A DNA stretch of 64,000 nt from an uncultured Clostridia bacterium (GTDB lineage: Bacteria > Bacillota > Clostridia > Oscillospirales > Acutalibacteraceae). The notes beneath the pieces were generated by a model that saw nothing but the letters and a program-made list of their open reading frames with translations, was not told the DNA's origin and ran no database searches. Made by a program: the position numbers and the translations under genes. The stretch covers positions 427-64,426 of the forward strand of contig CANQLX010000002.1 of the NCBI GenBank assembly GCA_947624835.1. The letters are read 5' to 3'. Each line of letters begins with the position of its first letter. Position 1 is the first letter of the stretch. Of the stretch, positions 24,487-43,379 are shown piece after piece.

Positions 24487-25638
24487 TTAATCCTTAAATA
24501 ATTTTTTTACCTTGTCAAAAAAGCTTGAGCGTTTTTGGTAATTCTTTCCCGTGCAGGTTTTATCGAATTGTTCAAGTATTCTTCTTTGTTCGTCTGTGAG
24601 ATTTCTCGGAACCTCTATCGTTACTTTGACATATTGATCGCCCCTGCCCCTTGAATTAAGGTGCTGGATACCCTTGCCTTTAAGCTTGAAAATATCTCCG
24701 GGCTGTGTTCCGGGATGTACGGTATAACTCGACTTTCCGTCAAGAGTAGGAACGGTCATTTCATGTCCGAGGGCAGCCTGTGCGAAGGTTATGGGGATTT
24801 CACACCATACATCGTCACCCTTACGCTCGAAAATATCATGCTTCCTGACATTGACATATACATGGAGATCTCCGGCCGGTCCGCCGTTATATCCGCTGTT
24901 GCCGTGACCTCCGATATTCAGTATTTGATCTTGGCTTATGCCTGCCGGTACGGTTACGGTCAGTGTCTTTGAGGAACGTATTCTTCCTACACCTGAGCAT
25001 TTCGGACATGGTGTTTCAATGATCTTTCCTTTGCCCTGACACTTCTCGCAGGTTTGTGTTGTCTGAATTGGACCGAAAGGAGTTCCCTTTCTCACAGTTA
25101 CCTGACCCGAACCGTTACATTGCGGGCAGGTTTTAAGATTGGTTCCAGCAGCTGCTCCCGAGCCTGCACATGATTTACAGGTTTCCACTTTTTTGTATGT
25201 AACCTCTTTTTTGCAGCCCTTTGCAGCTTCCTCAAAATCGATTGTGATTGATGCTTCTATATCTGAGCCTCTTCTCGGAGCATTTTGATTTCTCGGACTT
25301 CTCCCGCCGCCGAAGCCGCCGAAAAAGCTGTTGAAAATATCACCTAAATCTATATCCTGACCGAACGGGTTTCCTCCGCCGTATGCGGTTGAGCCTGCAC
25401 CATAATTCGGATCAACTCCCGCAAAGCCGTATCTGTCATATCTTGAACGCTTATCTCTGTCGGAAAGAACCTCATATGCCTCGTTTATCTCTTTAAATTT
25501 AGCTTCAGCTTCCTTATCACCCGGGTTAAGGTCGGGATGATATTTTTTCGCCTGTTTGCGGAATGCCTTTTTGATTTCATCCTCCGAGGAGCCCTTCTGT
25601 ACTCCAAGTACCTCGTAATAATCACGTTTATCTGCCAA
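24487..25638 (-). CDS. dnaJ: Molecular chaperone DnaJ
   Basis: J-domain with HPD (KYHPDLNP), a G/F-rich region, and four CxxCxGxG zinc-finger repeats. Confidence 0.95.
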
Positions 25639-25753
25639 TTATACCACCCCGAATAGTAAATAATACCTTTATTTCCTGTTGTTTCTTATATAACCGCCAA
25701 AAGGGAAAAGCTAATCCCGGCTTTCCCCCCATGGCTTGATTTCTCAGTTAAGC

Positions 25754-27583
25754 TTAGTTGTTGTTATTGTTGTCGTCAACATCTGTGTAATCTGCATTAT
25801 ACACGCCGTTATTCTCCTCCGGAGCCTGCTGTGCAGCGGCACCCTGAGCGGCAGCATCCTGATATAGCTTCTCTGATACTGCATACATTGATTTTTGGAG
25901 ATCGTCCTTTGCGGACTGAACAACCTCAAGATCCGTTCCTGCAAGTGCCGATTTTACTGCTGCAACCTTAGTATTGAGTGTTTCCTTGTCCTGATCGGAA
26001 ATATGCTCGCCGTTTTCGCTGAGAAGCTTTTCAACGGCATAAACAAGGTTTTCTGCCTCATTTCTCTTGTCAACCTCTTCCCTGCGTTTCTTATCCTCGG
26101 CTGCATACTGCTCCGCATCCTTGATAGCCTTTTCTATGTCATCCTTGTTCATGTTTGTGCTTGAGGTAATCGTTATATGCTGCTCTCTGCCTGTGCCGAG
26201 ATCTTTTGCGGATACATTAACTATACCGTTGGCATCTATATCAAATGTAACCTCAATCTGCGGAACGCCCCTCATAGCCGGAGCTATACCATCGAGCTTA
26301 AAAAGACCGAGCTGCTTGTTGTCTTTTGCAAATTCTCTCTCACCCTGAAGAACATTTACCTCAACCTGAGTCTGATTATCAACAGCTGTGGAGAATATCT
26401 GACTCTTCTTCGTAGGTATTGTTGTATTTCTCTCAATGATTTTTGTCATAATACCGCCCTGCGTTTCAACACCGAGTGAAAGCGGTGTTACATCAAGAAG
26501 GAGAAGTCCCTGTACATCACCTGCAAGCACACCTGCCTGAATAGCTGCACCTATTGCAACACATTCATCGGGGTTAATGCCCTTGAAGGGATCCTTGCCT
26601 ATAAGGGATTTAACAGCTTCCTGTACAGCAGGTATTCTTGAAGAACCGCCGACCATGAGAACTTTGTCAATCTCGTTAATTGATATTCCCGAATCTGAAA
26701 GTGCCTGACGGACAGGGCCCATTGTTTTTTCCACAAGGTCTGCCGTAAGCTCGTTAAATTTTGCTCTTGTGAGAGTATAGTCAAGGTGCTTTGAGCCGTT
26801 GGCATCTGCTGCTATAAAGGGAATATTAATTTGGGCTGTTGTTATTCCGGAAAGCTCAATTTTAGCCTTTTCTGCTTCGTCCTTAAGACGCTGCATAGCT
26901 GTTTTATCTCCGGAAAGGTCTATACCCTCGTCATTCTTAAAGCTCTGAACGAGCCAGTCAATAATCTTCTGGTCAAAATCGTCGCCGCCGAGGTGGTTAT
27001 TACCTGCCGTTGCAAGAACCTCCTGAACGCCATCGCCCATTTCTATAATAGATACATCGAATGTACCGCCGCCAAGGTCATATACCATTATCTTTTGGTC
27101 ATTTTCCTTATCTACACCATATGAGAGGGCAGCGGCTGTAGGTTCATTAATTATACGTTTAACTTCAAGACCTGCAATCTTACCGGCGTCCTTTGTTGCC
27201 TGACGCTGTGCATCGGTAAAGTAAGCCGGTACTGTGATAACCGCCTGTGTAACTGTCTCTCCGAGATAAGCTTCTGCGTCCTTTTTGAGCTTTGTGAGGA
27301 TCATTGCGGAAATTTCCTGCGGTGTATATTCCTTCCCACCGAGATTTACCTTGTATGAAGAACCCATATGTCTTTTTATTGATGCTATTGTTCTGTCAGG
27401 GTTTGACACTGCCTGACGCTTTGCAACCTGTCCCACAAGTCTTTCTCCGTTTTTGGAAAAAGCGACAACGGACGGTGTTGTTCTTGCACCCTCAGCATTA
27501 GGAATAACTACAGGCTCACCGCCTTCGATTACTGCAACGCAGGAGTTTGTTGTACCAAGGTCGATACCGATTGTCTTTGCCAT
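25754..27583 (-). CDS. dnaK: Molecular chaperone DnaK (Hsp70)
   Basis: [18 protein letters not shown] and VGGSSRIP signatures. Confidence 0.97.
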
Positions 27584-27661
27584 AATTGTTACCTCCGAAA
27601 ATTATTTTATATTGTTTATTGTCCGGCTTTAAGCCGACGTTGTGTAAGATTAGGTTTTCTC

Positions 27662-28195
27662 TCAATTTGAGATTATTACCATTGCATGACGGATTATTTT
27701 ATCGCCTACCTTGTATCCCTTCTGATAAACAGAGGCAATACAATCCTCTTCCAGCTCGTCATCATCAACCCTTGATACTGCATCGTGAAGCTGCGGGTCA
27801 AACTGTTCTCCTCTTTCGCCAAACTGCTCGACATTAAGCTTCTTGAAAGCGTTCTCAAGTTGTTTGTTTATCATATCAAGCCCCTTCATAAATTCGTCAC
27901 TTGCACCGTCTGTTGAGGTAAGGGCGAGGGTGAAGCTGTCTGCAACAGGAAGAAAGGCTTCGACAGTTGTTGCAAGTGCATTGTCGAATGTTGCAAGCTT
28001 TTCCTTTTCTGTTCTTTTGCGGAAATTATCATATTCTGCCGCCATTCTCAAAAACTGGTCCTTTTGCACGTCAAATTCAGCCTTAAGCTTATCATATTCT
28101 TCCTTACTGACCGTTTCGGGAGCCTGCTCTTCCGTTTCAACGGTTTCATTCTTTTCCTTATCTACTTCAGGCTTAGTATTTTTCTTTCTTGTCAA
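27662..28195 (-). CDS. grpE: Nucleotide exchange factor GrpE
   Basis: Acidic N-terminus, a coiled coil, and a C-terminal GrpE beta-domain (FDPQLHDAV...GYKVGDKIIRHAMV). Lies between hrcA and dnaK. Confidence 0.9.
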   Translation of the reverse strand: MTRKKNTKPEVDKEKNETVETEEQAPETVSKEEYDKLKAEFDVQKDQFLRMAAEYDNFRKRTEKEKLATFDNALATTVEAFLPVADSFTLALTSTDGASDEFMKGLDMINKQLENAFKKLNVEQFGERGEQFDPQLHDAVSRVDDDELEEDCIASVYQKGYKVGDKIIRHAMVIISN

Positions 28196-28230
28196 AATAC
28201 ATTCTCCTTTCTTATTATACCTTTTTATGC

Positions 28231-29262
28231 TTATCCGTATTCAATTAGTTCCGAAAGCATATTGCCCACAATATCCGAGGTGTATTCAAGAGCAGATACT
28301 ATTTTTGGATAATTCATTCTCACAGGACCTATAAGTGCAAGCACACCGCTACATTCGGGTGTGGATGTATAATGAGATGCTATCACACTCAGCCTTGATA
28401 GGGCAGGATGATTTATCTCACTTCCTATAAGTATGCTCGCTTTTGAATCAGCACCCATAAGAAGCTTTTCAAGTTCTCTTGAATGGCTCAGCAGCTCCAT
28501 AACTCTTTTGCCGTCGCCTGATGCGAGTTCGGTCATGGTAAAAAAGTTTGATTGTCCCTTGACAGCCGCATTTGCGGCGGATGCGTCCTTTGCGGCATCG
28601 TTCACTGCAAGCAGAACATTTGTCATGAGTATTGACATTTCACCGAGAGCTGCTGCGGAGCTTTGCATAAAGGCAGGTGTTACGTCGGTTACGGAAATAC
28701 CGGAAAATCGTTCGTTCATTGTCTTTTCAAACATCTCCGTGAGTTCGGGTGTTATGATAAAATCGCACCTGAAGAGTTTGGTTTTTACCGAGCCGGTTGA
28801 CGTTATCAAAATGACCATTGCGGTACATCTGCCGGTCTGGATAAATCTGATTTTTTTAATTGTTGCAGCTTCACCCGGGGGGGATGTAGCCACAGCAACG
28901 CAGCCCGTCATTTCTGACAAAAGTGCCGCCGCACCCTCAAGCAGATGATCGGGAGCATCCGAAGTGGGATACAACATATCATAAATATGAGATTGCTCAT
29001 ATTTTGTCAAAGGTATTCTTTTCATAAGCTTATCTACATATATTCTGTATCCAAGCTCAGTCGGAATACGTCCTGAAGAAGTGTGAGTCTGTTCAAGCAG
29101 ACCGAGGGAAGCAAGCTCAGCCATATCATTTCTGATTGTAGCGGAGGAAACATTGAAATCAAGATTTTCGCACAGGGCTTTTGAACCGACAGGCTCTCCT
29201 GTTTTTATGAATGCCTCCACGACCGCTTCGAGAATCTTAAGTTTTCTTTGGGCCGGTTCCAT
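28231..29262 (-). CDS. hrcA: Heat-inducible transcription repressor HrcA
   Basis: N-terminal winged helix (RKLKILEAVVEAFIKTGEPVGSKAL). First gene of the hrcA-grpE-dnaK-dnaJ order, with CIRCE upstream. Confidence 0.9.
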   Translation of the reverse strand: MEPAQRKLKILEAVVEAFIKTGEPVGSKALCENLDFNVSSATIRNDMAELASLGLLEQTHTSSGRIPTELGYRIYVDKLMKRIPLTKYEQSHIYDMLYPTSDAPDHLLEGAAALLSEMTGCVAVATSPPGEAATIKKIRFIQTGRCTAMVILITSTGSVKTKLFRCDFIITPELTEMFEKTMNERFSGISVTDVTPAFMQSSAAALGEMSILMTNVLLAVNDAAKDASAANAAVKGQSNFFTMTELASGDGKRVMELLSHSRELEKLLMGADSKASILIGSEINHPALSRLSVIASHYTSTPECSGVLALIGPVRMNYPKIVSALEYTSDIVGNMLSELIEYG

Positions 29263-29874: not shown

Positions 29875-30633
29875 TCAGTATATTAATGTCGGATCCATAT
29901 TATTTCCGTCAAGTTTTACTTCAAGGTGAAGATGTGATTTATCTTTGGATTCGGACGGTATCTTTCCGACATAGCCTATTGTATCTCCTGCCTTGACATT
30001 ATCACCCTTGCGTGCAATGGAAGTATCCGTTACTCCGCAATAAAAGGATTCATAACCTCCGCTGTGTTCAACAGCTATAACATTACCGAGAAGTGGGTCG
30101 GTGTATAAATCCTTAACGATTCCGCCCATGATTGCACGGACGGGTGTGCCCTCACCGGCACTTATATCCACTCCGTTATGAGTACGCCAATCTCCCATGG
30201 TTTCTGATTTTATGGGATTTTTCAGGCTGAATGGCTTAAGGATTTCACCCTTGTCAATCGGCTCGGCAGTCAAAGCCTCGGATTCCTCGGCAACTGTTTG
30301 CTGTACAGAGGCTTCCTCCGTTTTATTGGAGCTTTGTTCGGAACCGGACGTTTTTGCACTGCTTTCAGTTCCTATTTCCGACGTCTCAGGCTTACTGCTT
30401 TCTTCAATCTCGGATTTTTCGTATTTCTGACCACTTACCTCTTCGTTGACCTTTTCGTTTTTTGATTCCTGAATACTGTTTTCATCTGAAGGCTGAGTAT
30501 ATTCCTGTATACTTCCGTAAGTAGTCCATGCCGCACCTGCAACAGCCGCAAGACATACTGCAAGAGAAATATAGAAACCAATATTTTTCTTCGGAGACTT
30601 TTTATAATTTCTTTCGTTCTTCATGTTTAGCAT
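29875..30633 (-). CDS. M23-family (LytM-type) peptidoglycan metalloendopeptidase
   Basis: N-terminal TM anchor, a Ser/Glu-rich linker, and a C-terminal HNGVDI ... SHLHLEV M23 signature. Confidence 0.85.
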   Translation of the reverse strand: MLNMKNERNYKKSPKKNIGFYISLAVCLAAVAGAAWTTYGSIQEYTQPSDENSIQESKNEKVNEEVSGQKYEKSEIEESSKPETSEIGTESSAKTSGSEQSSNKTEEASVQQTVAEESEALTAEPIDKGEILKPFSLKNPIKSETMGDWRTHNGVDISAGEGTPVRAIMGGIVKDLYTDPLLGNVIAVEHSGGYESFYCGVTDTSIARKGDNVKAGDTIGYVGKIPSESKDKSHLHLEVKLDGNNMDPTLIY

Positions 30634-30771: not shown

Positions 30772-32469
30772 TTAAATTATTTTTCCGTTTACCCGTACCT
30801 CACAGTCGGAACGGTTGATTGCACAGAGCAGACTTCTCGCCGATGCCTTGAATATACCGTGAGAAATGCCCACGCCGAATACCTTTTTGCCGTCAGGCTT
30901 TCTCATTTGCATATAGCATATAGCCTTTGAATCGGAGCCGCTTGAAATTGAATGTTCCTTGTATGATAACACCTCAAAGCCGTTTATGCCCACAGACTTA
31001 AGGGCATTTACAAATGCATCTATTGGGCCGTTGCCCTCGCCGTAAATTTCTATATCCTTATCAAACTTGACAAGATGTATTGTTCCTTTGAAAGTCGCCT
31101 CGTCAACTCCAACATTAGTTATAACATGATGGACAAGCCACAGCTTCTGCTTTATATCAATGTAATTTTTATTGAATATCTCAAGAAGATCCGCCGGAGA
31201 AAGTTCTTGCCCTTGACGGTCGCTTTCAGCCTTGACGAGTGCACCGAACTCGGGGTGCATTGCCTTGGGAAGTTCATAGCCGTATGCTGTTTCCATAATG
31301 AATGCGGCTCCTCCCTTTCCGGACTGAGAGTTATAGCGTACTATCGCCTCATATTTTCTTCCTACATCAGCGGGATCTATCGGAAGATAGGGAATCTCCC
31401 ACTTGTCACTGTTTGTAGCTTTTACATAATCAAAGCCTTTTTTGATAGCGTCCTGATGTGAGCCGGAGAAAGCGGTAAATACCAAATCGCCGACGTAAGG
31501 CTGTCTTTCGCCTATTTTCATGTTTGTGCAGCGTTCGTATATTTCTTTGTACTTTGGCAGATTGCTGAAATCGAGCTTGGGGTCAATTCCCTGAGTGTAC
31601 ATATTCAGTCCGACCGTTACAATGTCAAGATTGCCTGTTCTTTCTCCGTTGCCGAAGAGTGTGCCCTCTATTCTTTCGGCACCGGCAAGCAGTGCAAGCT
31701 CTGCTCCCGCAACCCCGGTACCTCTGTCGTTATGCGGGTGAACGCTGATTATAGCTGATTCTCTGTTTTTCAAATTCCTTATAAAATATTCTATCTGATC
31801 CGCATAGGTATTGGGCGTACACATTTCGACCGTATTCGGCAGATTTAGTATTATCGGGTTTTCCTTTGTAGGCTTCAAAACATCCATGACAGCCTCGCAT
31901 ATCCTGACGGAATTGTCCGCCTCCGTGCCGGAAAAGCTTTCGGGGGAATATTCCAGTCTAAAATTGGTATCTCCGTCGTATCCGTCAATCAGCTCCTTGA
32001 TAAGCTTAGCACCTTCAACGGCAATGTCGATAATGCCGTCCATATCCTTTTTGAATACGACCTTTCTCTGAAGGGTTGATGTGGAGTTATAGAAATGTAT
32101 TATTACATTTTTTGCCCCATGCACAGCCTCAAAGGTTTTGCGTATGAGGTGTTCCCTTGCCTGAACCAATACCTGTATGGATACGTCATCCGGAATGTGA
32201 CCGCCTTCGATAAGCTCACGGCAGATCTCATACTCCGTTTCACTTGCGGACGGAAAACCTATTTCTATCTCCTTGAAGCCCATGTCGACCAAAGCGTGGA
32301 AAAACTCAAGCTTCTGCTCCATATTCATAGGCGTTACAAGTGCCTGATTGCCGTCCCGCAGATCCACAGAACACCATATTGGAGCCTTTGTTATAGTATT
32401 GTCGGGCCATTTTCTGTCTTTGAGCTTTATCTGCTCAAACGGTGTATATTTTTTAAATCCTTCGTTCAT
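30772..32469 (-). CDS. leuA: 2-isopropylmalate synthase (long form)
   Basis: 565 aa. DLRDGNQ and HPHNDRGTG motifs, a C-terminal LeuA dimerisation/regulatory domain, and a Leu-type T-box leader. Confidence 0.9.
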   Translation of the reverse strand: MNEGFKKYTPFEQIKLKDRKWPDNTITKAPIWCSVDLRDGNQALVTPMNMEQKLEFFHALVDMGFKEIEIGFPSASETEYEICRELIEGGHIPDDVSIQVLVQAREHLIRKTFEAVHGAKNVIIHFYNSTSTLQRKVVFKKDMDGIIDIAVEGAKLIKELIDGYDGDTNFRLEYSPESFSGTEADNSVRICEAVMDVLKPTKENPIILNLPNTVEMCTPNTYADQIEYFIRNLKNRESAIISVHPHNDRGTGVAGAELALLAGAERIEGTLFGNGERTGNLDIVTVGLNMYTQGIDPKLDFSNLPKYKEIYERCTNMKIGERQPYVGDLVFTAFSGSHQDAIKKGFDYVKATNSDKWEIPYLPIDPADVGRKYEAIVRYNSQSGKGGAAFIMETAYGYELPKAMHPEFGALVKAESDRQGQELSPADLLEIFNKNYIDIKQKLWLVHHVITNVGVDEATFKGTIHLVKFDKDIEIYGEGNGPIDAFVNALKSVGINGFEVLSYKEHSISSGSDSKAICYMQMRKPDGKKVFGVGISHGIFKASARSLLCAINRSDCEVRVNGKII

Positions 32470-32477
32470 GAAAATTA

Positions 32478-32758
32478 CCTCCTTATAAATTTAAATCCCG
32501 CCCCCTGCCACATGGACAAGGGGCGGGCATAATGCACGCGGTACCACCCTTTTTCGGATATAATATATACATATCCCTCACCGATCTCAAGCAAGATCTC
32601 GACCTTTAACGCTGCCGTGCGTACTGCCCTACATTATCGAACAGTCAACTCGGGAATGAGCTATACATACGGACACTGACATTGTCTTACACCGACCGAC
32701 AATTCTCTTGGCACAATGTTCCGTATCTTATTTCCTTCAAAGTCTTTAATTATGAGTT
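32478..32758 (-). promoter_or_regulatory. T-box riboswitch leader (candidate Leu CUC specifier) with terminator
   Basis: On the minus strand: AGAGA GA-motif (32704-32708); candidate specifier CUC-A (32658-32660); conserved T-box AGGGTGGTACCGCG (32537-32550); and terminator CCCGCCCC...GGGGGCGGG (32497-32527) followed by ATTTAAATTT. The promoter TTGACA-18-TATAAT is at 32765-32794. Confidence 0.8.
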
Positions 32759-34345: not shown

Positions 34346-34999
34346 TTATATGAATTTCAAAATATCCTCCGGTATCTCAGCTATATAATCGGCTCCCTCA
34401 TGCATAAGCTCCTCTTTTGTACGGAACCCCCAGCATACACCTATACTTCTGATGCCTGCATTTTTTGCGGTCTGTATATCGACATTGCTGTCGCCGATAT
34501 AGATGCTTTCTTCTTTAGTAACTCCAATGTTTTCCATTATGGAAAATGCTGCGGTCGGATCCGGTTTTGTATTTATTCCGTCACGCTTTCCTCGTATATC
34601 GGAAAAACAATTTTTTCCAAAAAGTGTTGTTACTATATCACAGGCGAAATTATCATTTTTGTTTGTATTGACCGCAAGTTTTATTCCAAGCTCCTTCAGC
34701 TTCCGAATAAGTTCCGACATACCGTCAAACGGACGTGTGTTGTCAAGCATATGAAGTTCATAGTATTCCCCGAAATCCTCAAGTATTTTTCTCTTTACAG
34801 CAGGATTGCTGTTTTCATTAAGTCCTGCGGCACGATCCGCAAGTACCGATATGCCATTTCCTACCATATAACGATATTTCTCGACAGGCTGAGGGGCAAA
34901 GCCATTCTTTTGTACTGCATAATTCATTGAAGCTGATATATCAGCGAGCGAATTTACAAGCGTACCGTCAAGATCAAATATACAAAGCTTTGTTTTCAT
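34346..34999 (-). CDS. HAD-superfamily hydrolase (phosphoglycolate-phosphatase-like)
   Basis: Motif I FDLDGTL and motif IV GDSNVDIQTA. The ATG at 34999 overlaps the upstream gene's stop (TGATG). Confidence 0.85.
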   Translation of the reverse strand: MKTKLCIFDLDGTLVNSLADISASMNYAVQKNGFAPQPVEKYRYMVGNGISVLADRAAGLNENSNPAVKRKILEDFGEYYELHMLDNTRPFDGMSELIRKLKELGIKLAVNTNKNDNFACDIVTTLFGKNCFSDIRGKRDGINTKPDPTAAFSIMENIGVTKEESIYIGDSNVDIQTAKNAGIRSIGVCWGFRTKEELMHEGADYIAEIPEDILKFI

Positions 35000-36867
35000 C
35001 AATCTTTATCCCTTCTCTTTTTTCGCTTTCTTTCCGAAGTTTTTATTTCGGCGTTCGGTTTCTTTGCAAGCTCGGCTGCATTTCCCTCGGGCAGCGTTGC
35101 ATGGGGTACCTCTCTGCTTTTGAGGAAAAGTACGGCGGCAATCGTCAGAAGTATTATTATGACGGAAATTGCACAGAAAACTATAATATCAGATACATTG
35201 GCAACGGAAACCTCCGAGTTTAGCACTGCCTTTGATCCGGCAAGTAAAACAGAATAAGAGCCGTTATCGTTTTTGTCGGCATATACGGTTTCATTTGAGT
35301 CCTTGTCAGAAGCTTTAATTGTTCGGATAAGTGATTTTGCAATTTCTCCGTTCCTTGAAGCAAGGGTATAATTGACGGGTGTATCAATGTTTTCTCCGAT
35401 AAGTATGGGGGACAGATCTATAGTATCCTCTATATGCTTTGCCGTTCTCAGGGTCATAAACGGAATATCGGATGAATAGGTCAACAGATTGCCTTCACCG
35501 AATATTTTCGTTATCTTGGAATTAATTTCAGCGGGGGTTCCTGTAAATTCAATAGTACACGTTGCGGTATTTTCTTTGGATGTCTGCGTTGTTGATATTC
35601 CGAGATCTTCAAAATACGTTGCCGTATAACCTGAGGCTTCAAATCCGTTTTCTTCTATGTTATAGGAGAAAGCATAGGATTTTTTAAAATTGTCATTATC
35701 AAGCGGTGTTAAGGTTATATCTATTATTTGCGGTTTATATTGCTTTCCGTCATTGATACGTACAGTAAGAGAAGGCTGCTTTGAAGATATTCCGACAATT
35801 CTGCCGGGGTCATTTTCTGCTGTGAAGTCGGAGGCATTTATCCATTCGAGGTTTGAATAAATTAGGCATGAATCCAGTTCGGAGTTATCAGCTGTTGTAT
35901 AGGTATATTCTATCGGTACATCAGTATTGTTGTCGCTGACATAGTTTGAAAAGTCGAGGGTTTCGATGAAGGAATTTTGATATGCAAGTGGTGTTGAGCC
36001 CTCGTTCCTGTCAACATATGAGGTATCACCGTACACCGAAGAAAACAGACGGTTCGTGTAGCCCTCAAGCTGTTTTAATGTGATATTTTTAAAGTCTGCC
36101 GTGTATGTATATTCACCGTTTTCAATCTGCCACGTTGTTGAGGCCGTACTGTCTGTCACGGAAGTAAAATATTTTGATATCTTATCGCCCAAAGAGTCAA
36201 ATGTATTCTGGGATATTTTGAAAGTGAATGTGCGGTCAAATGTGGATTTTTTATTAACCGTGGAAATTTTTATTGATTTTATGGGGTGTCCGCTGAGTTT
36301 ATTTACTGATACGGTGGGGGTAGTGCTTACGGTTTCTGAATTGAAGTTCACAGAGGTTGCACTTTCCTCCGAGGGAATATCGTAATCGTATATCTGTTCG
36401 GCATGGGCGGCATCTGTAAGCCAATGGAGAAGCTGCGAGCTTTGGAAGGATTCCTCAATACGCCAGCCCTGCGTCAGGGGGGTATCTGGATTTGCAAAGG
36501 TGACGGTCGGACGAGTGCCGAGTATATCGGTTAGCTTTGACATATAATCGGAGAAAGAGGAAAACGATAATGTAAAGGTATAGGAAAGACTGCCCGATGA
36601 TTTATCGAGTGAATGTGCAAGGGCTGAGGGGCAGGAGTCCTGTATGAGCTTATCAAGTTTTTCTGCCCTGTCCGATGACGGTGACACCGAGGATGTCGGA
36701 TAGGTTACGGTGAAAGTTCTTGTACCCGCAAAGTTAGGGGAAAATGTCAGGGTTGTTTTATAATTGACTTTGTCCGACTCCGACTGCGAGCAGGAAGAAA
36801 AAATTAGAAGTATCATGACAGTAAGTGAAGCTGTTATTATTTTCTTTATAATGCTTTGGTTTTTCAA
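34999..36867 (-). CDS. Large lipoprotein with C-terminal TM anchor and basic tail, unknown function
   Basis: A TTG start at 36867, 7 nt after an AAGGAG RBS, is preferred over the GTG at 36876. Lipobox LIFSSC, about 550 aa of beta-rich ectodomain, then a TM helix and the tail KRKKRRDKD. Confidence 0.6.
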   Translation of the reverse strand: MKNQSIIKKIITASLTVMILLIFSSCSQSESDKVNYKTTLTFSPNFAGTRTFTVTYPTSSVSPSSDRAEKLDKLIQDSCPSALAHSLDKSSGSLSYTFTLSFSSFSDYMSKLTDILGTRPTVTFANPDTPLTQGWRIEESFQSSQLLHWLTDAAHAEQIYDYDIPSEESATSVNFNSETVSTTPTVSVNKLSGHPIKSIKISTVNKKSTFDRTFTFKISQNTFDSLGDKISKYFTSVTDSTASTTWQIENGEYTYTADFKNITLKQLEGYTNRLFSSVYGDTSYVDRNEGSTPLAYQNSFIETLDFSNYVSDNNTDVPIEYTYTTADNSELDSCLIYSNLEWINASDFTAENDPGRIVGISSKQPSLTVRINDGKQYKPQIIDITLTPLDNDNFKKSYAFSYNIEENGFEASGYTATYFEDLGISTTQTSKENTATCTIEFTGTPAEINSKITKIFGEGNLLTYSSDIPFMTLRTAKHIEDTIDLSPILIGENIDTPVNYTLASRNGEIAKSLIRTIKASDKDSNETVYADKNDNGSYSVLLAGSKAVLNSEVSVANVSDIIVFCAISVIIILLTIAAVLFLKSREVPHATLPEGNAAELAKKPNAEIKTSERKRKKRRDKD

Positions 36868-37157
36868 TTTTGTCACTCCTTGAAGCGTTGACTTTTAACA
36901 ATATTTTACTCTCTTTATCCGTCAATGTAAAGAGTTTTTTGAATTATAAAGATATGGTTATGTATTTGTTTTTTACTAAAGAGGGGATTTTTCGGTCAAG
37001 CTATAAAAAATATACAATTACGGATTAAAAATTTATATAGCCTGATTATAATTTTATCTTGATTTTACAGGCGTTTTGGATTTATTATATATAGAGTAGG
37101 TTTTTTGTCATTTTGAAGGGAACTATAAAATATTAGGTAGGAGAAGATACGGATCTG

Positions 37158-38264
37158 ATGAAATATATACATATACCGAAGATACTTAAAATAGATTTTG
37201 ATAAGCCTGTACCGTTCAAACAGCAGGTTGCTATAATGTTTACGGTTCTTATTATCTCGTGTCTGCTGTTTACAGTTGTGTATTTCCAGCAGCTTTTTTC
37301 GGGGAATATAGCAACTGTAACCGAACCGGAGGTTTTACAGTCCGAGTCTCCGAAGGAAAAAGAGAAAAGTGTTGCCGATACATCACATGGCAATCCGACA
37401 GACAGAAATGATGAGAAAAGTTCTCCGAATGAAAACAGTAAGAATACGGATTTAAAAAATGCGAATGTCGAACTTTTGGGAAGCACAACAATTGTTTCAA
37501 AATCATATGACGATATATATAACGGTGAGCTTATACTTGTAAACAAGGATTATTCCTGTCATTCCGACGGTGAGAATGTCGAGTCTATATTTGAGAAAAA
37601 ATCCGACAGCTATGTCGTTACAGATAAGTATGTAAGCATGGATACTTCCATTGTTGAAAATGTCAATTCAATGCTGGACGATTTTTATGATATTTACGGT
37701 GAGTCGGATATAATGATTGCCTGCGGCTATCGGAGCTATGATACTCAGGTCGGGCTGTACAATAACGAAATCGGAAATGTCGGTACTGAAATGGCGGAGC
37801 AGTGGGTGGCTCCTCCTGGATACAGTGAGCATCAGACAGGATATGTTTTTGACCTTGATTTGGATGTTGTCGGCAATGACGGAATAAACTATGAGGGAGA
37901 TGGAAAATATGCATGGATAAATGAGAATTGCTCCGATTACGGTTTCATCATAAGGTATCCCGCCGGTAAAGAGGAGATAACGGGCTATTCGGAGGAGCCG
38001 TGGCATTTCAGATACGTTGGTGTTCCCCATTCCCAATATATCTCGGATAATGGTATTACACTTGAGGAATATCTGGATATTATTCATGAGCATAAATCGG
38101 ATTCCCCTGCACTTATTGAGGATGACGACGGCGGCAGATGGTGTGTATACTTTGTAGAGGCAGATGAGACGGGGGATACACATATTCCTGTCCCGGAAGA
38201 GCTTGAGTACAGCATATCAGGGGATAATTACAGCGGATTTATAGTTACTGTAAAGCTCGGGTAG
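37158..38264 (+). CDS. M15B/VanY-family D-alanyl-D-alanine carboxypeptidase
   Basis: N-terminal TM anchor. Zn-site motifs SEHQTGYVFDL and EPWHFRYVG. Confidence 0.8.
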   Translation: MKYIHIPKILKIDFDKPVPFKQQVAIMFTVLIISCLLFTVVYFQQLFSGNIATVTEPEVLQSESPKEKEKSVADTSHGNPTDRNDEKSSPNENSKNTDLKNANVELLGSTTIVSKSYDDIYNGELILVNKDYSCHSDGENVESIFEKKSDSYVVTDKYVSMDTSIVENVNSMLDDFYDIYGESDIMIACGYRSYDTQVGLYNNEIGNVGTEMAEQWVAPPGYSEHQTGYVFDLDLDVVGNDGINYEGDGKYAWINENCSDYGFIIRYPAGKEEITGYSEEPWHFRYVGVPHSQYISDNGITLEEYLDIIHEHKSDSPALIEDDDGGRWCVYFVEADETGDTHIPVPEELEYSISGDNYSGFIVTVKLG

Positions 38265-38397
38265 AATATTTCGACATAATTGCAGCAGAAAGCATGAAAA
38301 TATTTTTTTTTATTGCAAAAAAGTTGGAAACATAGTATAATACATATGTTGGGTTGTGCAATGAATTATGTTGAAGTGTTGTATGAGGTGGTGTTGA

Positions 38398-39207
38398 TTG
38401 GACGGTAATACAATAGGCTTGATTGTGGCCGGTGTGCTTTTTGCTGCACCTGTGGCGATTGTGGTGGGTGTTGTGCTTGTTATAAGAGGGAAAATAAGGA
38501 AATTTGAAAAGGAAAGTGGCCTTGACCTCAGTATGGATAACTTTATCAAGGATCTGGGAAAGGCGGATGCCTCGGATTCGAGTCCCTTATCGCTCAACGG
38601 TATGGATAAAATATATCTTCCGAAGATACATGAGGAATTTCCCGATTTTCAGATTGCTTCGGTTATGCCTCAGGTGGAAACCGTTTTGAAGGAGTATCTT
38701 AATTCCATTGAGATTAAGAGTACATCAGCTCTGAAAAAGCTTACGATTTCTCCGTCACTTGTTGACAGGGTGGAAAGCATAATTGAGGACCTCAATTCAA
38801 GAAATTTGAAGGTGAATTATGATAATGTGGTAATACACCGGACTGTTATAAGTGAATATGTTCATGAAAACGGAATGGTTATTATAAGATTTCAGTCTGC
38901 GGTTGGGTATCTGAATTTTTCGCAGGATGAAAATGGCAAACTCGTGAGCGGAAGCAAGGAAAAAACAAGAGAAACAGTATATGTTGTTTCATATGCGAGA
39001 GTTCTTGACAGCGATCTTGCAAGACAAGCCGGAGTTACTGATGTTATGGGACTTAACTGCCCTAACTGCGGAGCACCGCTGAGTTCGGCAAACGCTGAAA
39101 AATGCCTTTTCTGCGGAACACCATTCCAAAATATGACTAATGATGTTTTTGGATGGTCATTTACAGATATCAAGGAAAAGAACAGGATGACAAAAAAATT
39201 ATACTAA
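38398..39207 (+). CDS. Membrane-anchored Tim44-like/NTF2-fold protein with C-terminal zinc ribbon
   Basis: TTG start 6 nt after a GAGGTGG RBS, then an N-terminal TM helix. The central ~150 aa resemble bacterial Tim44-like domains, which is my inference. C-terminal CPNCGAPLSSANAEKCLFCG. Confidence 0.55.
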   Translation: MDGNTIGLIVAGVLFAAPVAIVVGVVLVIRGKIRKFEKESGLDLSMDNFIKDLGKADASDSSPLSLNGMDKIYLPKIHEEFPDFQIASVMPQVETVLKEYLNSIEIKSTSALKKLTISPSLVDRVESIIEDLNSRNLKVNYDNVVIHRTVISEYVHENGMVIIRFQSAVGYLNFSQDENGKLVSGSKEKTRETVYVVSYARVLDSDLARQAGVTDVMGLNCPNCGAPLSSANAEKCLFCGTPFQNMTNDVFGWSFTDIKEKNRMTKKLY

Positions 39208-39225
39208 CAAAGGAGATGCGCTAAG

Positions 39226-40644
39226 ATGGGAATTATTAAGGCGGCGATGAATGCGGTTGGCGGAACACTCGGTGATTCATGGCTGGAGGTTATTGAGCCT
39301 AGTGACATGGATGCAAGAACTGTAATGTGCCCGGGTGTGTCGAAATCAAGAAATGACAGCAGGAATACTAACTCTAAGGGTACACCCGATACTGTTTCAA
39401 ACGGATCGATTATACACGTTTATGATAATCAGATGATGCTCCTCATAGATGGAGGTGCTATTATTGATTATACTGCCGAACCGGGTTATTTTGAAGTAAA
39501 AAATTCATCCTTACCCTCACTTTTCAACGGTCAGTTTGGTGACTCGCTCAAGGATGCTTTTAACCGATTTAAGTTCTCAGGTGTTACACCTACCGCTCAA
39601 AGGGTTGTTTATATCAACCTCAAACCTATTGAGGGAATAAAATTCGGTACTCCCAATCCTGTGAGCTTCTATGATGCAACATACGATATTGATGTCAGCG
39701 TTCGTGCACACGGAAAATTTTCTATAGAAATTATTGATCCTCTCAGATTTTTCAGGACTGTTATAGCAACTTCCGATGTTACAAATATGAGACCTGTCGA
39801 TATGGAGAAGTTGGTTGCACAGAGATATGACCTTGAAGTTATTACGGCGCTTGAACCTGCACTTGCTGAACTTTCAATAAAAGGTGTAAAGATCTCCCAG
39901 GTTCCGGCACATCTTCCGGAACTTTGTGAAGCACTTAAAACCGCTCTCCGTGATACATGGGTTGAAGAACGTGGTATACAGCTAAAGCAAATAGGTATCA
40001 GTGTTAATCCGGATGAGGAAACAAAGGAACTTCTCAAAGAAAGAAGCAGAGTTGCTATGTTCAACAATGCCGGCATGAGAGAAACAATGATGCAGAAAAA
40101 TATATCCGAGGGTATCAGAGATGCAGGCTCAAATTCCAACGGTGCTATGGCAGGTTTCATGGGTGTTGGTATGGGTATGAACGCTTCCGGCGGTTTTATG
40201 CAGGCGGCATCTGCCACTAATATGCAGCAGATGCAGATGGAGCAGCAAATGCAGCAGCAGCGTATGATGCAGCAACAACAGATGCAGCAGCCTATGCAGC
40301 AACAGCCGGTTCAACAGCAACAGACGGTTGCTGCTCAGCCTCAACAGGCTGCGCCGGCTGCCGATGGATGGACGTGCAGCTGCGGCAGGACCGGAAATAC
40401 CGGAAAATTCTGTGCGGAATGTGGGCAGCCTAAGCCTGTACCCGCCGCATCCGGAGAGTGGACGTGTATTTGCGGTGCGGTTAATAAGGGTAAGTTTTGT
40501 GCCGAATGTGGTGCAAAACGTCCTGATGCAAAACCAAAAAAGCTGAAATGTGATAAGTGTGGTTATGAACCCGATATGAGTCAGCCTATTCCGAAGTTCT
40601 GCCCTGAATGCGGAGATCCGATAAATGAATCGGATTATGTATGA
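39226..40644 (+). CDS. SPFH-domain protein of the COG4260/YdjI (virion-core-protein-like) type with Q-rich linker and three C-terminal zinc ribbons
   Basis: The N-terminus MGIIKAAMNAVGGTLGDSWLE ... SNGSIIHVYDNQMMLLIDGG is characteristic of this family. It is followed by a poly-Q/M tract and then 3 CxCG...KFCxECG units. Confidence 0.8.
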   Translation: MGIIKAAMNAVGGTLGDSWLEVIEPSDMDARTVMCPGVSKSRNDSRNTNSKGTPDTVSNGSIIHVYDNQMMLLIDGGAIIDYTAEPGYFEVKNSSLPSLFNGQFGDSLKDAFNRFKFSGVTPTAQRVVYINLKPIEGIKFGTPNPVSFYDATYDIDVSVRAHGKFSIEIIDPLRFFRTVIATSDVTNMRPVDMEKLVAQRYDLEVITALEPALAELSIKGVKISQVPAHLPELCEALKTALRDTWVEERGIQLKQIGISVNPDEETKELLKERSRVAMFNNAGMRETMMQKNISEGIRDAGSNSNGAMAGFMGVGMGMNASGGFMQAASATNMQQMQMEQQMQQQRMMQQQQMQQPMQQQPVQQQQTVAAQPQQAAPAADGWTCSCGRTGNTGKFCAECGQPKPVPAASGEWTCICGAVNKGKFCAECGAKRPDAKPKKLKCDKCGYEPDMSQPIPKFCPECGDPINESDYV

Positions 40645-40839
40645 TATTTTTGAATATTCAGTTTTAACAGTATGTTTAACTGAATTGAAATTCAAAGGTT
40701 TAATCGGCTGATTTCTACTAAAATACCTTTAATAGGGGACGCTTGCTAAAGTAACGGCGTCCCCTGCTGAATATAGACAGTTGCCTTCTTGCAATTAGGC
40801 GATAGGATTTACATAATAAAAGGAGTGAACTCCCTATTT

Positions 40840-41904
40840 ATGGAAACATTAGTGTATAAATGTATAAACTGTGGAGGTCCGCTGCAATATGATGCCTCTA
40901 AGCTTAAATTCTATTGCGAATATTGTCGCAGCGAATTTACGGAAGAGGTTTTGCAGCAACATTTCGGAAAGCTTGAGGAAAAGCTTGACGGGGAAAGACA
41001 GTCCGAGGAGTTGAGCGAAGAGGATAAGCTTTACGGAACTGCACTTTTTACCTGCCAAAGCTGCGGTGCAGAGGTAATTGCAGAAACACAAAATACAGCG
41101 GCTACCTTCTGTGTATATTGCCATAGCCCCGTTGTCCTTACAAACAGACTCAAGGGTGAATTTAAGCCAAATAAGGTTATCCCGTTCAAAATTTCCGAGG
41201 AGGATGCAAAGCAGAAATTTCGTGATTTCTGCAAAAAGAAATGGTTTTTACCTAAGGACTTTGTATCATCTGCACAGCTTGAGATGATGAAAGGTGTTTA
41301 TTATCCATATTGGCTTGTCGATTCGCATAAGGACGGCGGAATAAGTGCTACGGCAAAAAAGGTCAAAAGATGGACCGAGGGCGGTTATGAATATAAAGAA
41401 ACAAAAATATATAAGGTTCGCCGTGCGGGTGTGATAAGCTTTACAGGATATCCGCAATCGGCATTGAGTGAAGATAATAGCAAGAATATATTGAAGTATG
41501 TTAATCCATATGATGACGAGGAATTGAAACCGTTTACAATGGCATATCTTTCCGGATTTCTTGCTGAAAAAAGAGATCTTGAAAGAAATCAAGTACAGTC
41601 CGAGGTAGATAAGGCTCTTGCCGAATATGCGAAGAAGATCTATCGTGATACGATTGATGGTTATGATTCGGTGACAATTGACAGCTTTGATATTAATACA
41701 ATTGACGAGCATTGGAACTATGCGCTTATGCCCGTGTGGATGATGACCTTCAAATATAGGGATAATATGTATATGTATGCCATGAACGGACAGACAGGCA
41801 AGAATTTCGGCGCTCTGCCTATTGCTAAGGGTAAGCTTGCACTGTTCGGAATCGGTTTGTTTATTGCACTTGTGATAATAGCTTATTTCCTGATGGGAGG
41901 TTAA
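40840..41904 (+). CDS. Double zinc-ribbon protein with C-terminal TM anchor (YdjG-like)
   Basis: ATG at 40840 after an AAAGGAG RBS. Zinc ribbons CINCGGPL...YCEYC and CQSCGAEV...FCVYCHSP, and a terminal TM helix LALFGIGLFIALVIIAYFLMGG. Confidence 0.55.
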   Translation: METLVYKCINCGGPLQYDASKLKFYCEYCRSEFTEEVLQQHFGKLEEKLDGERQSEELSEEDKLYGTALFTCQSCGAEVIAETQNTAATFCVYCHSPVVLTNRLKGEFKPNKVIPFKISEEDAKQKFRDFCKKKWFLPKDFVSSAQLEMMKGVYYPYWLVDSHKDGGISATAKKVKRWTEGGYEYKETKIYKVRRAGVISFTGYPQSALSEDNSKNILKYVNPYDDEELKPFTMAYLSGFLAEKRDLERNQVQSEVDKALAEYAKKIYRDTIDGYDSVTIDSFDINTIDEHWNYALMPVWMMTFKYRDNMYMYAMNGQTGKNFGALPIAKGKLALFGIGLFIALVIIAYFLMGG

Positions 41905-41912
41905 TCAATGTT

Positions 41913-42386
41913 ATGAAAAAAAACAGGTCGTTTATAAAGCTATTTATGCTTTTTACTGTTCTTATGCTGGCGGCGGTGTTTTCTTTGACAGTAGTTGCCG
42001 CTGAGCCGGATAACGCTGCCGACGGCATCGCTGTTAATGTCGAAGCAGTTACCGCCGGTGCTGACAATACCGTAAACGGTATTGCTGTAAATGCCGGAGC
42101 AGTTGACGCCGGAGCGGATAGTACTGCCGACGGTGCCGCTGCCAATGCCGAATATCAGGTGCTTTCTTCCTCAGGCGGCATTAAAAGAAGTCTTGTTGGA
42201 ATTGTACTTTTGTCAGCCGTAGTCAGTGTTGTCGTAACGGTTGTTTTATACTTCAAATATAAATTCAACGGCAAGACCGAGCCGTATCCGTATAATAAGA
42301 AGGCTCCGCTGGAGTTGAGTGTATGCGAGGATATTCATATTGACACAAAGGTTGAGAGAAAGAAGATAGAGAAAAACAATAATTAA
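41913..42386 (+). CDS. Signal-peptide protein with Ala/Asp/Gly repeats, one TM helix and a short cytoplasmic tail
   Basis: The signal peptide ends in VVAAEP. There are about 2.5 copies of an 18-19-aa repeat (ADGIAVNVEAVTAGADNTV / NGIAVNAGAVDAGADSTA), then a TM helix. The gene starts 9 nt after the previous gene. Confidence 0.5.
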   Translation: MKKNRSFIKLFMLFTVLMLAAVFSLTVVAAEPDNAADGIAVNVEAVTAGADNTVNGIAVNAGAVDAGADSTADGAAANAEYQVLSSSGGIKRSLVGIVLLSAVVSVVVTVVLYFKYKFNGKTEPYPYNKKAPLELSVCEDIHIDTKVERKKIEKNNN

Positions 42387-42431: not shown

Positions 42432-42956
42432 ATGAGATTTGATGTTATGCCCGTTGCAACAGAAAAACAGATTATTGAGGTCGAACAGGCTGCAAATAAT
42501 GTTTGGCATAATTACTATAAGGAGATTTTTTCTCCTGAACAGATAAGCTATATGCTGAAAAAATATCAGTCCCGTGAGGCATTGAGAAAACAGCTTTCGG
42601 AGGGATATATATACTATATGCTTCTTTCAGACGAAAAGCTTGCAGGGTATATGTGTATGCTCAGAACGGACGATTACATATACCTTGCGAGACTTTATAT
42701 CAAAGCTGAATATCGTCGTCAGGGGCTTGCAAAAAAGGCAATAAGATACATTGATACCATTTTTTCCAATCCTGAATTCGGTCTTCTGCATATAAACAAG
42801 ATACGTCTTAAGGTTGAAAGAGAAAATAGCTTTGCAATTAATGTGTATGAGCATTTGGGATTCCGTAAGGTCAGGTCGGAGGATACGGATATAGGCGGAG
42901 GTTTTGTCTGTAAGGAATATATTATGGAAAGACCCATCAGAAGTGTTGATATCTGA
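42432..42956 (+). CDS. GNAT-family N-acetyltransferase
   Basis: Acetyl-CoA-binding motif YRRQGLAKKAI and the NSFAINVYEHLGF region. Confidence 0.8.
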   Translation: MRFDVMPVATEKQIIEVEQAANNVWHNYYKEIFSPEQISYMLKKYQSREALRKQLSEGYIYYMLLSDEKLAGYMCMLRTDDYIYLARLYIKAEYRRQGLAKKAIRYIDTIFSNPEFGLLHINKIRLKVERENSFAINVYEHLGFRKVRSEDTDIGGGFVCKEYIMERPIRSVDI

Positions 42957-42968
42957 GGTGAGTATGCC

Positions 42969-43379
42969 ATGGGAAATAAGCTTAATGCATATATAAACAG
43001 TCTTTATGAGATGATAGACAGCGGAGAAAAAATTGAGGATATAGAGCTGTTCAAGCAGGAACTTTTCAGAGAAATAGAGTTTTGGCAGCATGAAAGGCTT
43101 ATACATCTTCTTGTGACGTTCCTGTTTGCAATAGTTACTGTCGCCGTTTTGCTTGTGTTGGTGTTCTATGCAAGTATTCCGCTGCTTATTTTGTTCGTAT
43201 TGCTTTTGGTTCTTCTTATACCGTATATAAGACATTATTACATATTGGAAAACGGAGTTCAGACTCTGTATGTATTATATGAGGAGATAGAGAGAAGAAA
43301 TCAGCCTGTATGCAAGTCGTGGCTCCCGAAGGAATACGGAATAAAGATGAAGCCGTTTTCCGGTGAAAATAAAAAATAG
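42969..43379 (+). CDS. Two-TM membrane protein, unknown function
   Basis: 136 aa with two adjacent long hydrophobic helices. No recognisable family. Confidence 0.45.
   Translation: MGNKLNAYINSLYEMIDSGEKIEDIELFKQELFREIEFWQHERLIHLLVTFLFAIVTVAVLLVLVFYASIPLLILFVLLLVLLIPYIRHYYILENGVQTLYVLYEEIERRNQPVCKSWLPKEYGIKMKPFSGENKK

Follow-up and report, generated by a model that had tools for sequence, protein, structure and literature searches.

A probable PspA-independent SamGHI-type SPFH module with a TPM-less SamH and a Tim44-like zinc-ribbon neighbor in an uncultured Clostridia bacterium

The SamGHI (YdjGHI) proteins of Bacillus subtilis have been characterized recently, and their relation to PspA is debated. 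Membrane recruitment of YdjI, the SPFH protein of this system, requires both YdjG and YdjH, and the proteins are linked in two-hybrid assays (PMC8581546); SamI restrains SamGH signaling, a phenotype for which PspA is not needed (bioRxiv 10.64898/2026.02.06.704340). A B. subtilis-type operon among our loci (L095) encodes PspA, YdjG, YdjH, and YdjI, as confirmed by Pfam. Other SPFH systems, including SPFH-NfeD, flotillin (FloA/FloT, YqiK), and HflK/C, likewise place an SPFH scaffold beside small membrane partner genes. Here we describe four genes of an uncultured Clostridia bacterium, three of which (I, G, and h) encode homologs of the pspA-ydjGHI (pspA-samGHI) components SamI, SamG, and SamH. 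Sequence and comparative analyses make it quite likely that the cluster is a PspA-independent SamGHI-type SPFH module in I-G-H order, with a TPM-less H, plus a further protein, T, that is tied genomically to SPFH-SamG in a subset of Clostridia.

All four genes lie on the plus strand of the window, the whole 64-kb stretch of DNA analyzed, between positions 38398 and 42386. The ORFs confirmed the co-directional arrangement described in a sequence-only reading of this DNA (intergenic distances 18, 195, and 8 nt). Direct reading of the sequence gave the same zinc ribbon counts of one, three, and two in genes 1-3. The features of the region are as follows.

37158..38264, plus strand: VanY-type D-Ala-D-Ala carboxypeptidase gene (PF02557, 105.9 bits), a syntenic upstream neighbor and at most a candidate member of the module
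38313..38341, plus strand: sigma-70-like promoter candidate upstream of gene 1, TTGCAA-17-TATAAT (10/12 matches in a consensus scan; a pattern match only)
38398..39207, plus strand: gene 1, T, a Tim44-like zinc-ribbon protein of 269 aa with a TTG start and a ribosome-binding site, GAGGTGG, 5 nt upstream
39226..40644, plus strand: gene 2, I, a soluble SPFH protein of SamI/YdjI type, 472 aa
40645..40839, plus strand: I-G spacer of 195 nt, with two hairpins, a promoter-like site, and a ribosome-binding site, AAAGGAG
40840..41904, plus strand: gene 3, G, a YdjG/SamG homolog of 354 aa counted from ATG (the mechanical ORF begins at TTG 40789)
41913..42386, plus strand: gene 4, h, a TPM-less YdjH/SamH homolog of 157 aa, beginning 8 nt after G
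42432-42956, plus strand: GNAT acetyltransferase gene (Pfam GNAT matches), 45 nt after the cluster
42969-43379, plus strand: hydrophobic ORF of 136 aa, probably with two TM segments by eye, 12 nt after the GNAT gene

For the sigma-W-dependent promoter that a B. subtilis-type module would have, a scan for the TGAAAC-N15-17-CGTA motif found none near the cluster, though the host's ECF sigma consensus may differ. A VanY gene is likewise directly upstream of T in one related locus (L008). L008 and L097 carry orthologs of the GNAT gene and the 136-aa ORF at the corresponding place (71% and 59% identity in L008, 64% and 55% in L097); these two genes are conserved neighbors within the clade, with a putative functional link.

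In the SPFH protein I, a Band_7_1 domain (residues 57-274) is followed by a low-complexity linker rich in Q, M, and G (~300-380) and then by three zinc ribbons at the C-terminus (CSC..CAEC, CIC..CAEC, and CDKC..CPEC); no hydrophobic segment was seen by eye. This layout is shared with YdjI, which has one ribbon rather than three. Membership in the YdjI family, as first read, held up, with both I (58.3 bits, cutoff 24) and the B. subtilis-type YdjI (146.9 bits) matching PF13421. An HMM built from the I family, for which we found >8000 homologs, scored 52 bits across the full length of YdjI, but direct BLASTP between the two proteins gave just 18% identity (E 0.015), so their kinship is distant and any functional transfer crosses subfamilies. 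Unlike the scaffolds of the SPFH-NfeD, flotillin, and HflK/C systems, I lacks flotillin repeats and any TM or hairpin anchor. Pfam detected neither an NfeD nor a flotillin domain in the four gene products, and the partners of I are instead of zinc-ribbon, TPM, and Tim44 type.

We found that G is a true homolog of YdjG, to which it had been likened: BLASTP aligned it with the B. subtilis-type YdjG at 32% identity over the full length (355 columns, E 1e-64), and the G family HMM scored YdjG at 359 bits. The two share a pair of zinc ribbons (N-terminal CINC..CEYC and CQSC..CVYC in G), a central domain that is beta-rich in G, and a C-terminal TM, which in G forms a tail anchor. The homologs of G comprise 6284 representatives, and its AF2 model has a pLDDT of 90.7. 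An NTF2-like relationship of the central domain has been stated previously (PMC11237479); our fold search found no match for this domain in the PDB and did not reproduce that relationship. Neither G nor gene 4 matched any Pfam family above cutoff.

Gene 4 had been read as an Ala/Asp/Gly-repeat surface protein in a cluster lacking any ydjH equivalent, and neither description survived. The protein begins with a signal peptide or first TM, followed by an A/D/G-rich ectodomain stub of ~60 aa, a TM at ~92-115, and a cytoplasmic tail with the conserved motif YK..G.TEPYPY...APLEL...D..VDT.V. The repeat proved to be a species-specific 54-nt tandem duplication (2.5 copies at 42016-42152, detected by TRF) in the stub, which is unconserved. 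A profile HMM of 50 full-length YdjH-type proteins matched h at 44.8 bits, only over HMM positions ~166-248 of 274, and the B. subtilis-type YdjH at 135 bits. Additionally, when the mini-h family was compared by hhalign with the family of full-length H proteins, the probability was 98.6% (E 9e-16), and h residues 92-157 paired with H residues 184-249. No Pfam match to the TPM domain (PF04536) was obtained in h. By its sequence, h is thus a truncated YdjH/SamH homolog: a signal peptide, a TM, and the conserved cytoplasmic tail are present as in B. subtilis H, but the TPM domain is missing, and functions that require TPM cannot be conserved.

PspA is absent from the locus, which is not a classical PspA-centered PSP system. 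The sequence-only reading had noted this absence, and jackhmmer searches of the whole 64-kb window translated in six frames, seeded with the PspA of E. coli and a B. subtilis-type PspA, agreed, detecting no PspA while recovering the controls L094 and L095; the source genome may nevertheless encode PspA outside the window. The 80 species loci surveyed below and the other fetched loci, two B. subtilis-type controls excepted, also have no pspA within 8 kb, so its absence is normal for this subfamily. The missing gene had also been read as hinting at a possibly distinct module; with none of the 80 subfamily loci carrying pspA within 8 kb, that view gives way to one of a variant of YdjGHI/SamGHI with one accessory component that we did not find described in the literature. 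Beyond lacking pspA and the TPM domain and showing no sigma-W-type motif in the scan, the cluster differs from the B. subtilis operon in its order (I-G-H here, G-H-I there) and in its additional Tim44-like/zinc-ribbon membrane protein, whereas the cytoplasmic parts of both systems are all predicted to be membrane-proximal.

Co-conservation of the gene families was examined in related loci and in a survey of 80 species genomes anchored on G. The commonest gene order was I-G-H (42 genomes), followed by G-H (25), T-I-G-H (6), and I-G-h (2), with T-I-G-h, G-H-H, and G-H..I found once each and G alone, at contig ends, twice. G-H is a near-invariant pair that forms the core across the 80 genomes, and in one locus (L084) G and H are apparently fused in a single 649-aa ORF. 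Clostridia, enterococci, and lactococci commonly have the I-G-H order. Triads in Enterococcus, Lactococcus, Lachnospiraceae, Oscillospiraceae, and Proteiniborus have the same order as the cluster described here and identical subfamilies of I and G, with HMM scores in the hundreds of bits, likewise without pspA, and their G and H genes are tightly coupled, often by a 4-nt overlap; we did not find these triads named in the literature. Unlike the present cluster, most of them have a full-length, TPM-bearing H and no T. The same four families recur together amid unrelated flanking genes in other loci, which shows that their association is not accidental.

The survey also bears on whether T-I and G-h are two independent neighboring units, an SPFH/Tim44 pair and a separate SamGH sensor with their own promoters and no joint complex. 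The 195-nt spacer between I and G contains two hairpins, one of which (AGGGGACGC..GCGTCCCCT at 40735-40766) has no T-run, and a promoter-like TTGCAA-17-CATAAT at 40789-40817; it folds with an MFE of -50.8 kcal/mol (z = -3.3) and may act as an attenuator, RNA stabilizer, or internal promoter, which makes a transcript shared by T-I and G-h only putative. Among the relatives examined the spacer sequence is unconserved and 23-133 nt long. Separate units would suit this spacer with its hairpins and promoter-like site, the I-G gap, which is still the widest within the cluster in those relatives, and the 25 of the 80 genomes in which no I adjoins G-H. Against this, I lies directly upstream of G in 51/80 genomes, spanning Bacilli and Clostridia, YdjI localization in B. 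subtilis depends on YdjG and YdjH, with supporting two-hybrid links (PMC8581546), and T follows G rather than flanking I in I-G-T loci. We therefore consider two separate units unlikely and favor a single SamGHI-type module.

The first gene, T, sets the cluster apart from most triads. It encodes an N-terminal TM (~5-28), a Tim44-like domain (77-206), and a single C-terminal zinc ribbon (CPNC...CLFC, residues 221-243), with the motif P.S..GM..IYLP.I..DFP.F conserved in the family alignment, and is predicted by the positive-inside rule to be a single-pass membrane protein with N-out/C-in topology. The Tim44/NTF2-like assignment proposed for it earlier was upheld by a marginal match to Pfam Tim44 PF04280 (29.7 bits, cutoff 29.6) and by Foldseek against the PDB, where the best matches of its AF2 model (pLDDT 80; ~87-96 over residues 70-200) were mL45 and the Tim44 C-terminal domain (2cw9, 3qk9, and 2fxt; E ~4e-5 to 5e-3, probability 1.00). 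A T homolog in L011 scored 30.4 bits against PF04280, and many T family members have precomputed matches to it. In mitochondria, the Tim44 C-terminal domain and mL45 serve as inner-membrane tethers for mtHsp70 or the mitoribosome. T has their NTF2-like alpha+beta fold in common, a likeness known from sequence and predicted fold at an identity of only ~10-15%, but adds its own N-terminal TM helix and C-terminal zinc ribbon and has no import or ribosome context.

T might be a syntenic passenger with an unrelated function, such as a Tim44-like adaptor for another membrane process. In the survey only 7/80 I-G-H-type loci carry T, which marks it as accessory, and our literature search on T found nothing, including no description of it as a partner of SPFH/SamGHI. 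In every context with enough flank, however, T is adjacent to I and G, despite unrelated flanking genes and a switch in position between two orders, T-I-G-H and I-G-T, the latter lacking H altogether. T-I gaps are also short (18 nt here), and T carries a zinc ribbon of the type found in G (hhalign 96.5%) and I (hhalign 77%). A passenger role is thus improbable, more so than the division into two units.

An anti-phage or abortive-infection membrane system was also considered, as phage stress has been associated with SPFH proteins and PspA, the family was formerly labeled 'virion core protein-like', a few 'phage' database records contain I-G homologs, and the literature connects PspA to CBASS regulation (PMC11153139). 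These records are short and unannotated, and the one inspected is an UNVERIFIED_ORG entry that looks like host DNA. PADLOC gave no significant family match, with none for genes 1, 2, and 4 and only weak, partial, zinc-ribbon-type matches for G (best E 1.5e-4, 19 bits), and we detected no relatives in a scan of viral_contigs. The flanking genes are housekeeping (secA-prfB, ftsEX, VanY, and the dnaK operon) rather than defense islands, and we regard an anti-phage role as very improbable, the least credible of the readings weighed here.

In the SamGHI-type module that we favor, and by inference from B. subtilis, tail-anchored G and bitopic h would form a membrane receptor that brings soluble, oligomerizing I to the membrane's cytoplasmic side, where I would restrain or organize G/H stress signaling and membrane organization. 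Judging from the anatomy of T, with its Tim44-like domain and a zinc ribbon like those of G and I, this protein could be a second membrane anchor or adaptor, and it may partly replace H, which is reduced to a stub here and missing in I-G-T loci. Because no folded extracytoplasmic domain is present, any sensing or action by the module would have to take place inside the membrane or at its inner face. We suggest only tentatively, at somewhat less than even likelihood, that T is a genuine, previously unrecognized subunit of clostridial SamGHI-type SPFH complexes, able to take over from SamH.

What is new in this locus possibly lies in the T partner and the TPM-less YdjH, the cluster otherwise being a variant of the known SamGHI system and no new kind. 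Many Firmicutes carry the I-G-H triad with pspA absent within 8 kb, in agreement with a recent proposal that SamGHI senses stress autonomously and does not serve as an accessory of PspA. One gut or rumen lineage dispenses with the TPM ectodomain of SamH yet retains the cytoplasmic tail motif, pointing to the tail as the functional interface. Together with these findings, a recurrent Tim44-fold membrane partner offers testable predictions for the field of SPFH scaffolds and envelope stress. If T is indeed a subunit, a bacterial Tim44-fold domain would tether an SPFH scaffold to the membrane, and the SPFH-SamG core would need neither PspA nor any extracytoplasmic sensor domain to work.

The ORF coordinates place four co-directional genes in one cluster, with intergenic gaps of 18, 195, and 8 nt, and CxxC/CxC pairs in their products give one zinc ribbon in the first, three in the second, and two in the third, all as described in the sequence-only reading. 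We refer to the genes and their families as T (Tim44-like with a zinc ribbon), I (SPFH, of the YdjI/SamI type), G (YdjG/SamG), and h, or mini-h, a version of YdjH/SamH without the extracytoplasmic TPM domain; the full-length, TPM-containing type is H.

38398-39207, + strand: T, 269 aa, TTG start with GAGGTGG in front
39226-40644, + strand: I, 472 aa
40840-41904, + strand: G, 354 aa counted from the ATG that agrees with homologue N-termini
41913-42386, + strand: h, 157 aa

Pfam assigned I to Band_7_1/PF13421 (58.3 bits, cutoff 24), confirming the earlier SPFH call, and T to Tim44 at 29.7 bits against a cutoff of 29.6, a Tim44-like call that Foldseek also upheld. No above-threshold Pfam family was found for G or h, and an NCBIfam search of the cluster proteins gained nothing decisive.

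Profile and pairwise comparisons identify the cluster as homologous to SamI, SamG, and SamH. In Bacillus subtilis, where the pspA-ydjGHI operon has now been renamed pspA-samGHI, YdjG and YdjH are membrane proteins needed for YdjI recruitment, and PspA is dependent on YdjI (PMC8581546; bioRxiv 10.64898/2026.02.06.704340). A B. subtilis-type operon for comparison was found in metagenome contigs by the published ydjG primer sequence, and all four of its products were confirmed by Pfam. G matched YdjG over its full length (32% identity, E 1e-64 by BLASTP; 359 bits with the G-family HMM), bearing out the suggested resemblance, and B. subtilis YdjG was absent from the best 150 representative G homologues. 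I shares only 18% identity with YdjI by BLASTP, but the I-family HMM covers the whole of YdjI (52 bits), both proteins belong to PF13421, and both are ordered as SPFH domain, Q/M/G-rich linker, and zinc ribbon(s). The AF2 model of G (pLDDT 90.7, pTM 0.83) has very long beta-hairpins and no fold match in the PDB by Foldseek (best E 0.14); G-type proteins have been assigned as NTF2-like (PMC11237479), an assignment not reproduced from this model.

The homology of h to YdjH is visible by profile methods only, direct BLASTP against B. subtilis-type YdjH giving no meaningful match. An HMM of 50 full-length YdjH-type proteins (240-320 aa, short proteins left out) scored 44.8 bits against h and 47-58 bits against its 125-146-aa orthologues, with the match confined to HMM positions about 166-248, which comprise the second TM helix and a conserved cytoplasmic juxtamembrane motif, YK...PY.Y....L.L...D..V.t.V..r.I. 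The same HMM scored 135 bits on B. subtilis-type YdjH, matching it from end to end and through the tail motif. Profile-profile comparison of the mini-h and H families gave a probability of 98.6% and E 9e-16, aligning residues 92-157 of h with 184-249 of H. Mini-h ectodomains are short, of low complexity, and unconserved among orthologues; in the window, the ectodomain holds a 54-nt tandem repeat present 2.5 times. On this evidence h is the protein of the YdjH position, with a predicted signal peptide, TM, and cytoplasmic tail kept and the TPM domain lost, so the earlier statements that the cluster had no ydjH equivalent and ended in a repeat surface protein were wrong: the repeat lies in the unconserved ectodomain. 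Since the mini-h state was seen only in the closest relatives of the window (loci L014-16, with 62-73% G identity, L003-5, L008, and L097), a derived loss is the simplest explanation for it.

Homologue-carrying contigs, read with their precomputed Pfam labels, gave the following gene orders.

T-I-G-h: L003-5 and L008, with differing flanks
T-I-G-h: L097
T-I-G-H(TPM): L011 and L096
I-G-H(TPM): Proteiniborus
I-G-T without H: L009-13 of a separate contig set, T relatives labelled Lachnospiraceae

In the last of these sets (L009-L013), I-G-T is divergent with no YdjH homologue and T takes the usual position of H; L009 has two GNAT genes between I and G, and L012 and L013 have a 179-aa ORF there. 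We also used a 17-sequence G alignment to scan a single genome from each species and annotated the best 80 loci by six-frame HMM searches. Their orders were I-G-H (42 loci), G-H (25), T-I-G-H (6), I-G-h (2), T-I-G-h (1), G-H-H (1), G-H..I (1), and G alone (2, both at contig ends), which makes G-H a near-invariant pair, and I lies ahead of G in 51/80 genomes. Taxa represented include Ruminococcus, Oscillospiraceae, Lachnospiraceae, Enterococcus, Lactococcus, Tetragenococcus, several Bacillaceae, Alkaliphilus, and Tissierellia; the cultured Alkaliphilus peptidifermentans DSM 18978 (L057) carries T-I-G-H, and I-G-H occurs in Enterococcus and Lactococcus species. Co-occurrence of the families, which the sequence-only reading had left to be checked, was found in varied flanks and, with T included, in 7 of the 80 survey loci.

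The module is elaborated locally in several loci: L059 (Bittarella massiliensis) has two further ORFs (328 and 318 aa) with weak YdjG similarity behind H, the H of L070 carries its TPM domain in duplicate, and L074 encodes a second TPM-rich protein of 907 aa behind H. In L084, an Oscillospiraceae MAG, a 649-aa ORF starting near 1390, called by a greedy ORF caller, matches both YdjG-like and YdjH-like HMMs, apparently as a G-H fusion; if true, this would be independent support for a G-H complex. In many Lachnospiraceae and related loci (L040, L041, L045, L058, L067, L071), I-G-H comes immediately after a pair of conserved ORFs, about 851-889 and 334-336 aa in length, which in L040 look like secA and prfB, and in L096 the module lies behind ftsE-ftsX, an M23 peptidase, an S41 protease, vanZ, and prfB; in these loci the module is located among core envelope and translation genes.

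Seeded with PspA of E. coli and of the B. subtilis type, a jackhmmer search of six-frame ORFs found both B. subtilis-type control loci (L094 and L095); neither the 64-kb window nor any of the remaining fetched loci (±8 kb) yielded a PspA. The reported absence of pspA therefore stands for the window, though not as a peculiarity of its cluster, as it is the rule for this subfamily. The cluster is arranged like the widespread I-G-H triad without pspA nearby, with a truncated H and an added Tim44-fold zinc-ribbon membrane protein.

The T family is small (120 matches at E ≤ 1e-3), and its named members are all Clostridia except one MAG labelled Bacteroidales. Aligned, its members have an N-terminal TM, then the conserved motif P.S..GM..IYLP.I..DFP.F, the Tim44-like domain, and at the C-terminus an invariant zinc ribbon (CPNCGAP...C.YCG) with a conserved Trp after it. 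Among PDB structures, the AF2 model of T (mean pLDDT 80, about 87-96 within the domain) best matched mitoribosomal mL45 and the C-terminal domain of Tim44 (2cw9, 3qk9, 2fxt; E 4e-5 to 5e-3, probability 1.00), ahead of the NTF2-like domains of ARC6/PARC6. A shared T-G domain beyond the zinc ribbon, such as a common NTF2-like one, was rejected on hhalign, which aligned the zinc ribbon only, and no relationship was found between T and H. Each T homologue examined with sufficient flank adjoins I and G, lying ahead of I in some contexts and behind G in others, and the neighbouring genes show no relation from one context to the next. This recurrence beside I-G argues for a functional link, and the readings of T as a passenger gene, or of the cluster as two independent units that are merely neighbours, are less well supported. 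A Tim44-like partner is mentioned neither in the PSP/SPFH comparative papers nor elsewhere in the library searched, which also gave no work on Tim44-like proteins with SPFH in bacteria.

A sigma-70-like promoter candidate lies upstream of T, and no sigma-W-type motif was found near the cluster, though the ECF sigma consensus of the host may differ. The I-G spacer (40645-40839) is unusually long at 195 nt, compared with 23-133 nt in relatives; it contains two stable hairpins without a T-run (MFE -50.8 kcal/mol, z = -3.3) and a promoter-like site, and its sequence is unconserved in related loci. An Rfam scan of the cluster and spacers gave no match.

Pfam identifies the neighbours of the cluster as a VanY-type carboxypeptidase on the upstream side and, downstream, a GNAT acetyltransferase. 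The GNAT gene and a 136-aa hydrophobic ORF (42432-43379) follow h with gaps of 45 and 12 nt, and both recur in that place in L008 (71% and 59% identity) and L097 (64% and 55%). T is less alike, at 38% identity when the window is compared with L097; the transcription unit may reach six genes. No specific relationship was found between this GNAT and those of the Lachnospiraceae loci, which were rejected as its kin. The wider flanks carry housekeeping genes (hrcA, dnaK, dnaJ, leuA, queH, and a sugar ABC transporter); features with positions are listed below.

24487-29262, - strand: hrcA, dnaK, and dnaJ heat-shock genes
29875-30633, - strand: M23 peptidase after the heat-shock genes
30772-32469, - strand: leuA-type 2-isopropylmalate synthase gene
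32516-32749, - strand: T-box leader upstream of the leuA-type gene (Rfam RF00230, 110.7 bits)

The nearby hrcA/dnaK/dnaJ genes and M23 peptidase indicate ordinary chromosome, not a mobile element. A 625-aa ORF (34999-36876, - strand) without a match in Pfam or NCBIfam has an N-terminal hydrophobic segment then a Cys, lipoprotein-like by eye, and a C-terminal TM with a K/R-rich tail. The reading of the cluster as a defence system is less well supported, with no meaningful PADLOC match and no relatives in a viral-contig scan, and we also reject a phage origin. The few GenBank 'phage' records with I-G homologues (matches H1-H9; for example OR846934.1, our L099) are all unannotated and most are short, and the record opened is marked UNVERIFIED_ORG and resembles host chromosomal DNA.

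Candidate novelties are possibly T as a partner, the TPM-less H, and the I-G-H triad without nearby pspA over the species surveyed, a result of use to specialists, though of little surprise. By analogy with B. subtilis, G and h would serve as the inner-face membrane anchor of the SPFH protein I, an oligomer that may there modulate stress signalling by G/H as well as membrane organisation. That h retains no more of H than its TM and tail suggests the tail as an interaction surface. From its anatomy and distribution, T may act as a further membrane tether or adaptor, or as an alternative one, and on the same grounds the lineage of the window would have a module without a folded extracellular sensor.
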